Both the position numbers and the translations under genes were made by a program. Positions 60,378-60,653 of a DNA stretch of 64,000 bases are shown piece by piece (the first letter of the stretch is position 1; every line of letters starts with the position of its first letter). The stretch spans positions 41,296-105,295 of the forward strand of contig CAYTFU010000002.1 in NCBI GenBank assembly GCA_964437185.1, written 5' to 3'. Below the pieces are notes generated by a model. It was given only the letters and a program-made list of their open reading frames with translations. It did not search any database and was not told the origin of the DNA. This DNA is from an uncultured Candidatus Saccharibacteria bacterium (GTDB lineage: Bacteria > Patescibacteriota > Minisyncoccia > Phycocordibacterales > UBA2100).

Positions 60378-60653
60378 TTACGCAGGCAATTTAACTCCAC
60401 TCTTTTTTGCGATTAATTTTATCCATTCTTCGTGGCGACTTAGTTGAATCTTCACCGCAGCGTACTCCATCGTGAGCTCGCTGACGGCTTTCGCCAAATT
60501 ATCAATCGCCTTCATCACCTGTTCGAATCTTTCATCTATGCGTCTTTCGAGTTGGTCGATCCTACTGTTATCTGCCTTCGTAACTAAGGCATCGATAACC
60601 CGATCAAGCTTCGCATCCAGTTCCTTGAATCCTATTTCCTTTCTCCTGGTCAT
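60378..60653 (-). CDS. small coiled-coil protein, family copy P2 (91 aa) inserted between atpG and atpD
   Basis: C-terminal [28 protein letters not shown] nearly identical pattern to P1. Confidence 0.7.

Follow-up and report, generated by a model that had tools for sequence, protein, structure and literature searches.

The coiled-coil gene P2 between atpG and atpD and its family of small genes at housekeeping-gene borders in Patescibacteria

Introduction

Small helical regulators of F-type ATP synthases include the C-terminal domain of subunit epsilon, Paracoccus zeta, mitochondrial IF1 and cyanobacterial AtpTheta. When integrative islands insert at tRNA genes or dusA, the end of the target gene is duplicated and restored; phage morons are self-promoted accessory genes. 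The beta-layer of coiled-coil proteins has the consensus [aliphatic]-A-T-K-[polar]-[D/E], and constructs with such inserts were trimeric (Hartmann et al., 2016, eLife, PMC4786415); in DUF3782 proteins, beta-layer coiled coils form the stalks of PD-(D/E)XK endonucleases (PMC4786415). The DUF16 genes of Mycoplasma pneumoniae are multi-copy, belong to RepMP1 and lie within recombining repeats (PMC3472980). The present study concerns P2, a gene for a protein of 91 amino acids (aa) that lies between atpG and atpD in a stretch of 64,000 nucleotides (nt) from an uncultured Candidatus Saccharibacteria bacterium (contig CAYTFU010000002.1), the whole of which is referred to below as the window, and the family of small coiled-coil genes to which P2 and a second window gene, P1, belong.

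This family is most closely related to beta-layer coiled coils of the Tcar0761/DUF3782 type; its relation to the DUF16 proteins of M. pneumoniae is looser. With a confidence that we place near the midpoint of the scale, P2 is read here as an accessory, self-promoted cassette gene of housekeeping-gene borders, gained and lost occasionally by recombination, and as neither a subunit of the ATP synthase nor a classical transposon.

P2 and its protein family

P2 is an open reading frame (ORF) on the minus strand (60378..60653; ORF call and translation; family profile E 3e-41). Its stop codon TAA (60378-60380) is separated by 2 nt from the ATG of atpD (60373-60375), and a TATAAT box is found in the 49-nt spacer towards atpG (60654..60702, minus strand), coordinates and sequence both agreeing with a preliminary description of this DNA. 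The protein is composed of a basic N-terminus (MTRRKEIGF), a beta-layer motif (LVTKAD), a heptad coiled coil and a C-terminal module. A first search returned 25 homologs, and dN amounts to 0.16-0.34 for P2, and to 0.11-0.34 between orthologs overall, while dS is saturated, so that dN/dS is far below 1; judged by these homologs and by the low dN with saturated dS, P2 is a real gene and no chance ORF. For the same reason, namely low dN while dS is saturated, strong purifying selection on the protein is indicated.

The paralog P1 (29807..30055, plus strand) encodes 82 aa with the beta-layer motif FATKED and the C-terminal module EYAAVSEQLTRHERWIKQIAKKSGVMLAD, and is located between a sensor histidine-kinase gene and trpS, the true start of the latter being at 30208. 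P1 and P2 share 46% identity (BLASTP, E 3e-19), and the family profile matches both at E 1e-32 to 1e-41 among the 1,070 window ORFs scanned, in accordance with the homology proposed earlier. The preliminary description had counted a third and weaker paralog, P3 (53139..53399, minus strand), a small coiled-coil gene between ychF and a membrane-protein gene with the beta-layer-like motif LPTKND. This part of the claim did not hold, as BLASTP gave E 2.0 against P2 and 0.011 against P1, the family HMM gave E 0.085 and 0.23 in the same ORF set with no significant full-length match, and the comparison of a P3 profile from 15 homologs with the P1/P2 profile (hhalign) reached 34% probability over 15 columns around LPTKND/ATKxD only. 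P3 was rejected as a paralog because a short motif is all that is shared and none of these scores is significant, and by these measures the window holds two demonstrable paralogs, not three. The orthologs of P3 are syntenic in their own right, with the order ychF, P3 and a gene for a DUF5671 protein. It is nevertheless correct, according to the window coordinates, that all three small genes occupy tight slots between housekeeping genes.

An exhaustive profile search placed 1,042 clusters (50% identity) in the family at E<=1e-3 and 198 at E<=1e-10, most members being 70-140 aa long. Most of the 62 family loci in species-representative genomes are labelled Kaiser-, Nomura-, Taylor-, Vogel- or Wildermuthbacteria or other Parcubacteria/Patescibacteria, and homologs carry Candidatus Kaiserbacteria labels. 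Scans with Pfam, NCBIfam, PHROG and PADLOC reached no model at threshold and returned weak coiled-coil noise only; at E<=10, Pfam and NCBIfam gave generic coiled-coil families alone and no ATP synthase family. No relative of the family was found in 2.9 million viral contigs, and a literature search yielded nothing relevant that describes the family or inserts in the atp operon in the candidate phyla radiation. According to these searches, P1 and P2 are members of a large, uncurated and undescribed family, mainly from Patescibacteria. The earlier idea of a small coiled-coil family with no described function was thus borne out insofar as the Pfam and NCBIfam scans reached no curated family, and failed only for the membership of P3.

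The common layout begins with a short N-terminus and at least one beta-layer motif of the form [hydrophobic]-A-T-K-x-[D/E] and continues as an uninterrupted heptad coiled coil with a fixed module towards the C-terminus; the family has no enzymatic domain. The beta-layer consensus was detected in 137 of 194 representatives, with FATKED and MATKDD as the commonest forms and two to six copies in 30. In those of the 194 that carry it, the R-H-E-x-W module is located 19 ± 1 aa from the C-terminus, within the more extended pattern E-Y...R-H-E-x-W...A..K.G..L. When the register of P1 was assigned by hand, starting from e after FAT, the a/d positions were occupied by I, V, L, L, V, L, V, L, V, L, Y, V, L, H, I and I, hydrophobic to the C-terminus, and this register puts the near-invariant His at d in the core, next to conserved Arg, Glu and Trp. 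AlphaFold2 modelled the P2 monomer as a single helix (residues 9-85, pLDDT 88), and it should be noted that a single chain cannot form a beta-layer. From these features we infer a parallel homotrimeric alpha/beta coiled-coil rod, the conserved and partly surface-exposed C-terminal residues of which would bind a cellular partner; in short, the family protein is probably a partner-binding trimeric rod. In addition, expansions of the beta-layer unit were observed in L023 (268-771), P0056, P0163 and P0171, for instance MATKKDIADIRAE in four copies or MATKDDIAKIWDS in three, and such expanded members are, to judge from their repeats, natural alpha/beta coiled-coil repeat proteins like Tcar0761.

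Comparison with known beta-layer proteins

When the family profile was compared with the sequences of the PDB, the informative matches were the beta-layer GCN4 fusions 7o92 and 7o97 (Giovannonibacteria) and 5apz (Thermosinus Tcar0761), the rest being designed coiled coils or other GCN4 fusions. The profile matches Tcar0761 (5apz) at E 0.0015, and the resemblance to the Tcar0761/DUF3782 type covers the beta-layer consensus (here FATKED, MATKDD and LVTKAD), the resumption of the heptads in register thereafter and the tandem nonad-like repeats, which reach up to six copies in the family, as in MATKDDIAKIWDS. Unlike those proteins, the family lacks a PD-(D/E)XK nuclease domain, is much shorter (70-140 aa), has its own invariant RHExW module and is largely restricted to Patescibacteria; DUF3782 was also not among the 25 commonest Pfam matches of family members. 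The structures 7o92 and 7o97 contain residues 18-54 of UY81_C0065G0003 from Candidatus Giovannonibacteria, a Parcubacteria protein with ATKxD motifs, and the family profile aligns to ATKKDIAGMATKHDIAQLDKRMKQLE at E 3e-4. Although the crystallised part is an N-terminal fragment only, it is probably the only solved fragment close to the family.

The commonest weak Pfam match was DUF16 (PF01519; MPN010, PDB 2BA2), which was found in 30 of 110 family members with a best E of 3.8e-6. All of these matches are nevertheless below the gathering score (16.6 bits for P2 and 16.2 for P1 against 40 bits), and membership of P1 and P2 in DUF16 was rejected on this threshold. DUF16 differs further in its RepMP1-encoded N-terminal region and in having no RHExW module, and the likeness may reflect only the composition of coiled coil and beta-layer.

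Genomic context of the family genes

The genes around P2 are all on the minus strand. atpA (61693-63264) and atpG (F1 gamma; 60703..61626; PF00231 assigned to its orthologs) precede it, atpG being its upstream neighbour, and atpD (F1 beta; 59002..60375; ORF call) and atpC (58749..59000; ORF call) follow, the latter encoding an epsilon subunit of 83 aa with the N-terminal domain only. The window was compared with loci of relatives from genomes and metagenomes, which are given L-numbers here. Orthologs of P2 with 43-78% identity are found directly upstream of atpD in L001, L004, L005, L008, L020, L022, L034 and L083, which makes nine loci together with the window. In the orthologous loci the start of atpD overlaps or abuts the P2 ortholog, and in L005, where atpD-atpC is split from the rest of the operon, the ortholog is still located beside atpD. 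Wherever P2 is present, it is the gene nearest to atpD in the atpG-atpD gap.

A survey of 80 metagenome loci that was anchored on atpD and blind to P2 revealed its absence within the same atpD clade in L081, L084, L086, L082 and L085. For instance, L081 has an atpD of 93% identity and an atpG-atpD gap of 96 nt, the gap shrinks to 41 nt in L084 and to 4 nt in L086, and in L082 a NUDIX gene alone occupies the junction. Outside the clade no locus of this survey contains P2, and atpG and atpD are mostly adjacent there. Moreover, a gene of the P2 clade was found downstream of alaS in L021, and the short epsilon occurs among relatives both with and without P2. Because the junctions of relatives are empty or otherwise filled, and because atpG and atpD are mostly adjacent outside the clade, P2 is, as far as these loci tell, no conserved component of the ATP synthase operon. 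A known operon component at this position across the phylum, which the preliminary description had named as the finding that would speak against it, was thus not what emerged, as P2 is missing from close relatives and matches no ATP synthase family.

The likeness of P2 to the small ATP synthase regulators consists in its small size, its helical nature, its position beside atp genes and a lineage epsilon without inhibitory helices; P2 differs from them in having no sequence match, no consistent co-occurrence with the operon and paralogs in unrelated contexts. A role of P2 as substitute for the missing C-terminal domain of epsilon was rejected, since the short epsilon is found with and without P2. 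In all relatives examined (atpC, L001-L111), epsilon has about 83 aa, corresponding to the beta-sandwich domain with no C-terminal helical hairpin, and the delta subunit is likewise short (128-129 aa). Replacement of the cassette in L022, where P2 is 43% and atpD 93% identical, is not claimed, as atpG there drops to a similar nucleotide identity.

Orthologs of P1 (59-83% identity) are always located directly downstream of the histidine kinase, with or without trpS following, and in the family tree the genes linked to atpD, to the kinase and to gltX form separate groups. Subfamilies are thus tied to one terminus of a housekeeping gene, which is the atpD 5' end for P2, the histidine-kinase 3' end for P1, and the gltX 5' end or the recA 3' end for others, and the family genes are inherited mostly vertically under purifying selection. 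The neighbours of the family genes vary greatly over the 62 genome loci (86 singletons) and include gltX (four loci), the rplE-rpsH interval, efp/recA, murG and an IS200-like gene, as well as alaS and ychF. One subfamily, with C-terminal halves about 80% identical, occurs at different sites, namely after atpC (L058), after ychF (L071) and near smpB (L053). The mapping of family members and orthologous sites foreseen in the preliminary description now covers these 62 genome loci, together with P2 present in nine loci and absent from five same-clade atpD loci.

Other genes were noticed at the same kinds of site. The atpG-atpD gaps of L001, L004, L008, L020, L034, L082, L083, L088, L103, L118 and L130 form a recurrent slot for unrelated small genes, which encode NUDIX hydrolase-like proteins, a Ham1 homolog, unknown ORFs of 111-142 aa, small membrane proteins or peptides and a toxin-antitoxin-like pair. 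In L038 (3740-4809) a family member is one of the differing ORFs of a small-gene cassette array with a period of 450-520 nt, the cassettes of which all have the same terminator hairpin and C-rich spacer as well as a common promoter-like segment (TTGCAA...TATACT, then 6 nt and the ATG). An IS200-like (Y1 transposase) gene is found directly downstream of the family gene in L027 (4562-5230) and L029 (4521-5186), that of L029 being flanked by a perfect 42-nt direct repeat. Outside Patescibacteria, on the Bacteroidales chromosome OY782677.1 (L046, 1646-5205), a family fragment has on one side a gene for a large serine recombinase, broken into two ORFs, and on the other a transposase gene of the IS1595 family, which suggests its arrival on mobile DNA.

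Duplicated gene termini around family genes

P1 is bracketed by an 87-nt direct repeat (29705-29791 / 30088-30174) with 82% identity and a 43-nt identical core, which confirms that one of the copies stands between insertion-type repeats. Copy A (29705..29791, plus strand) is the functional 3' end of the histidine-kinase gene (28257-29792, plus strand) upstream of P1 and encodes VDAHGGKIWAESEGEGKGSTFVVELPTA up to the stop codon. Copy B (30088..30175, plus strand), between P1 and trpS, is a displaced kinase 3' end that encodes VDTRKCKIWAESEGEGKGSTFIVELPAA and has its own in-frame stop. The flanks of the repeat are 59-64% identical, as divergent as orthologs of other genera; the 3' flank differs mostly synonymously, and the 5' flank of copy B is non-conservative (VDTRKC vs VDAHGG). 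In the relative L161, whose P1 is 83% identical, no remnant of copy B was found.

Two further loci display such duplications. In L008 a remnant of an atpD start, reading MKGTITQIVGPVVDAK up to a stop codon (42-nt repeat), lies ahead of the P2 ortholog, and this remnant differs from the functional atpD start by synonymous changes around a 20-nt identical core. In L024, from Taylorbacteria, the final 95 nt of recA occur twice (99% identity), and the two copies enclose a membrane ORF and the family gene, whereas the relative L026 has recA, the family gene and efp with no duplication. All three scars have the form A-cassette-A', with one copy serving as the functional terminus and no second copy of the cassette. 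A search at the protein level for more remnant termini returned L008 only.

The cassettes (350-820 nt) consist of the family gene only, plus the membrane ORF in L024, and contain no transposase or integrase. No inverted repeats were found around P2, and those around P1 were 11-12-nt pairs at chance level; a 19-nt repeat around P2 (60361-60379 / 60619-60637, 79% identity) was likewise judged to be due to chance. No conserved DNA repeat or att-like site is common to the cassettes. As the Rfam and tRNA scans of the window were empty, its repeats are not RNA genes, and no tRNA was found in the scar-bearing loci. A transposon, insertion sequence (IS) or miniature inverted-repeat element (MITE) was rejected, given that there is no transposase domain and no inverted repeat and that the paralogs are 46% identical only. 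The resemblance to integrative islands and morons concerns self-promoted accessory genes between conserved genes and, for the islands, direct repeats from a duplicated target-gene terminus with the insert supplying the functional terminus, repeats of this kind being present at P1, L008 and L024 but neither at P2 in the window nor at most loci. The cassettes differ from islands in their size of 350-820 nt and in having no integrase and no att core common to the sites, homology to the target gene being apparently their sole address.

The same scar type as at P1 was also observed in the window around an island with no family gene (24260-25608), which encodes an MntA-type nucleotidyltransferase, a HepT RNase toxin and a GNAT acetyltransferase and is bracketed by a 50-nt, 90%-identical duplication (24157-24206 / 25775-25824) of the 3' end of the upstream membrane-protein gene (23728-24216). 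In addition, the last 46 nt of a 431-aa gene (40269-41564), whose putative product was read from its sequence as an M23-like peptidase, are repeated 100 nt downstream (41520-41565 / 41620-41665, 93% identity, 54 nt between), which could be an almost empty insertion scar. The scars are thus not specific to the coiled-coil family.

Expression signals

The ATG of P2 follows 8 nt after the end of its -10-like box TATAAT (60662..60667, minus strand; from the sequence), and the interval contains no Shine-Dalgarno sequence. P1 has a -10-like box TAGAAT directly after the kinase stop (29793-29798, plus strand; from the sequence), and among the 25 family genes inspected almost all have a TAnnnT box mostly 6-9 (up to 15) nt before the ATG and no Shine-Dalgarno sequence. 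A consensus scan for generic sigma-70 promoters gave no full -35/-10 promoter in the P2 region. The arrangement suggests that P2 is transcribed as a leaderless mRNA from its own promoter, and as P2 lies between this internal promoter and atpD, translation of atpD would be coupled to it, most likely by termination-reinitiation after P2. Similar -10-like boxes 6-9 nt before the start, with no Shine-Dalgarno sequence, were seen at P1, trpS (30195-30200), P2, P3 (about 53408-53413) and the atpD of the P2-less loci L081 and L084, which suggests that leaderless transcription is widespread in these genomes.

Origin of the cassettes and alternative explanations

If P2 is an accessory cassette gene as proposed, the family genes would be lost and occasionally inserted, or reinserted, through homology with a conserved gene terminus. 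Such an insertion could proceed by a Campbell-type (ends-in) single crossover or by homology-facilitated illegitimate recombination, and would leave a duplicated gene terminus on either side of the cassette; in the Campbell-type version, the circular or tandem junction would consist of the P1 3' end joined to AGTAGACACTCGCAAGT... running outward. A single crossover is preferred to tandem duplication, because the latter needs an extra precise deletion each time. Turnover appears to be slow and to depend on host recombination rather than on machinery of the family's own. What was first described as the behaviour of a selfish or mobile gene family is therefore retained in part: family genes occur at many housekeeping borders, terminal duplications are found at three loci and no curated family covers them. 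The selfish, transposon-like part is contradicted by the retention of the same site across saturated-dS genomes under purifying selection, by paralogs that are 46% identical, by cassettes with no transposase or integrase, by the lack of a match in the viral contigs and by scars at about 4% of the loci.

Several points weigh against the cassette reading. Scars were found in 3 of about 73 family loci (~4%), none flanks P2 in the window, and the excess of bracketing repeats is modest (6/62 family genes vs 16/435 others, several controls being artefacts or derived from the same cassettes). The loci examined showed neither a recombinase nor a circular intermediate nor a near-identical second copy. 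Loss alone could explain the pattern of presence and absence, and the atpD tree is a neighbour-joining tree with no support values. The -10/leaderless layout, which is also found at trpS and at P2-less atpD, is a genome-wide habit and no hallmark of cassettes. The trimer and its partner binding, for their part, we infer from motifs alone. Finally, the persistent adjacency to atpD, in the split operon too, and the abutment or overlap of stop and start leave room for a functional link between P2 and F1 beta.

The points on loss are central to a somewhat unlikely alternative, according to which P1 and P2 are ordinary, vertically inherited lineage-specific genes with slow change of gene order and losses only, the duplications being background noise of recombination. 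Synteny is indeed kept across saturated-dS genomes under strong purifying selection, near-identical paralogs, mobility genes and viral matches are lacking, and, where about 1 Mb of genome is densely packed, any gene will have housekeeping genes on both sides. Like duplications are also present at other window genes, one enclosing 54 nt only; nevertheless, three independent loci display A-cassette-A', each of which would require a further precise deletion after tandem duplication, and the P1 scar has allele-like flanks around an identical core. Vertical descent alone also has to account for family genes inside operons that are otherwise universally contiguous (atpG-atpD and rplE-rpsH) and for one subfamily at different sites (L058, L071 and L053).

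The adjacency to atpD in turn is what an F1 factor would explain, P2 being then a lineage-specific accessory or regulatory protein, either a trans-acting helical inhibitor or an assembly chaperone of beta (similar to IF1, zeta, AtpTheta or the missing epsilon helices), kept stoichiometric with beta by translational coupling. P2 does abut or overlap atpD in all nine Kaiserbacteria loci (43-78% identity) and stays beside atpD-atpC in the split operon, and a small protein predicted as fully helical by AlphaFold2 accompanies an epsilon with no regulatory C-terminal helices. We nonetheless hold this explanation to be quite improbable, given that P2 is missing in close relatives with 85-93% identity in atpD and an epsilon just as short, that a P2-clade gene lies beside alaS in L021, and that paralogs with the same C-terminal module lie beside histidine-kinase, gltX, recA, ribosomal protein and ychF genes; P2 is similar to no ATP synthase family in Pfam or NCBIfam, and the L008 scar represents an insertion into a pre-existing atpD 5' end. 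Still less credit is given to an autonomous selfish element, in which the coiled-coil protein would itself promote integration or maintenance of the cassette, as a recombination or addiction factor, and home to gene termini. The related DUF3782 beta-layer coiled coils serve PD-(D/E)XK endonucleases as stalks (PMC4786415), the family is the sole gene common to all cassettes, the terminal-duplication scars fit, and the Bacteroidales fragment lies between serine recombinase and IS1595 transposase genes. The family protein, however, is devoid of any catalytic domain or motif, the cassettes have neither conserved DNA repeats nor att-like sites in common, the same scar type surrounds a toxin-antitoxin island with no family gene, and most copies are old and scar-free with no viral matches, so that such an element is considered highly improbable.

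Other features downstream of the atp operon

The atp operon is followed immediately by two neighbouring large ORFs with a high content of Gly, Ser, Thr or Pro (56089-57312 and 57382-58689). They have in common a conserved C-terminal domain with the pattern ASLIIAQ...NGST...W(S/T)SVGM...SCT, which at the DNA level is visible as an 89-nt repeat of 73% identity. Their putative products were read from composition as secreted or cell-wall-associated.

Implications

No curated library covers this protein family, which numbers about 1,000 clusters (50% identity) and comes for the most part from a major radiation of uncultured bacteria. Its architecture of beta-layer motifs, coiled coil and invariant C-terminal module is clear, which makes it amenable to structural and interaction tests. 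In Kaiserbacteria, insertions recur even between atpG and atpD, which bacteria normally keep contiguous. Duplicated ends of resident genes are found time and again beside accessory genes of these reduced genomes, and if this is general, it would point to a simple recombination route for gene gain where classical mobile elements appear to be few. With regard to annotation, P2 should not be called a new ATP synthase subunit.

As a speculative extension, which we regard as rather unlikely, Patescibacteria might contain integrase-less "homing cassettes", that is, tiny self-promoted genes whose sole address is a copy of an essential-gene terminus (atpD 5', kinase 3' or recA 3'). These would be inserted by Campbell-type recombination of the host after DNA uptake, replace the terminus and become entangled with the expression of the essential gene, the coiled-coil family being their commonest cargo or an active helper.

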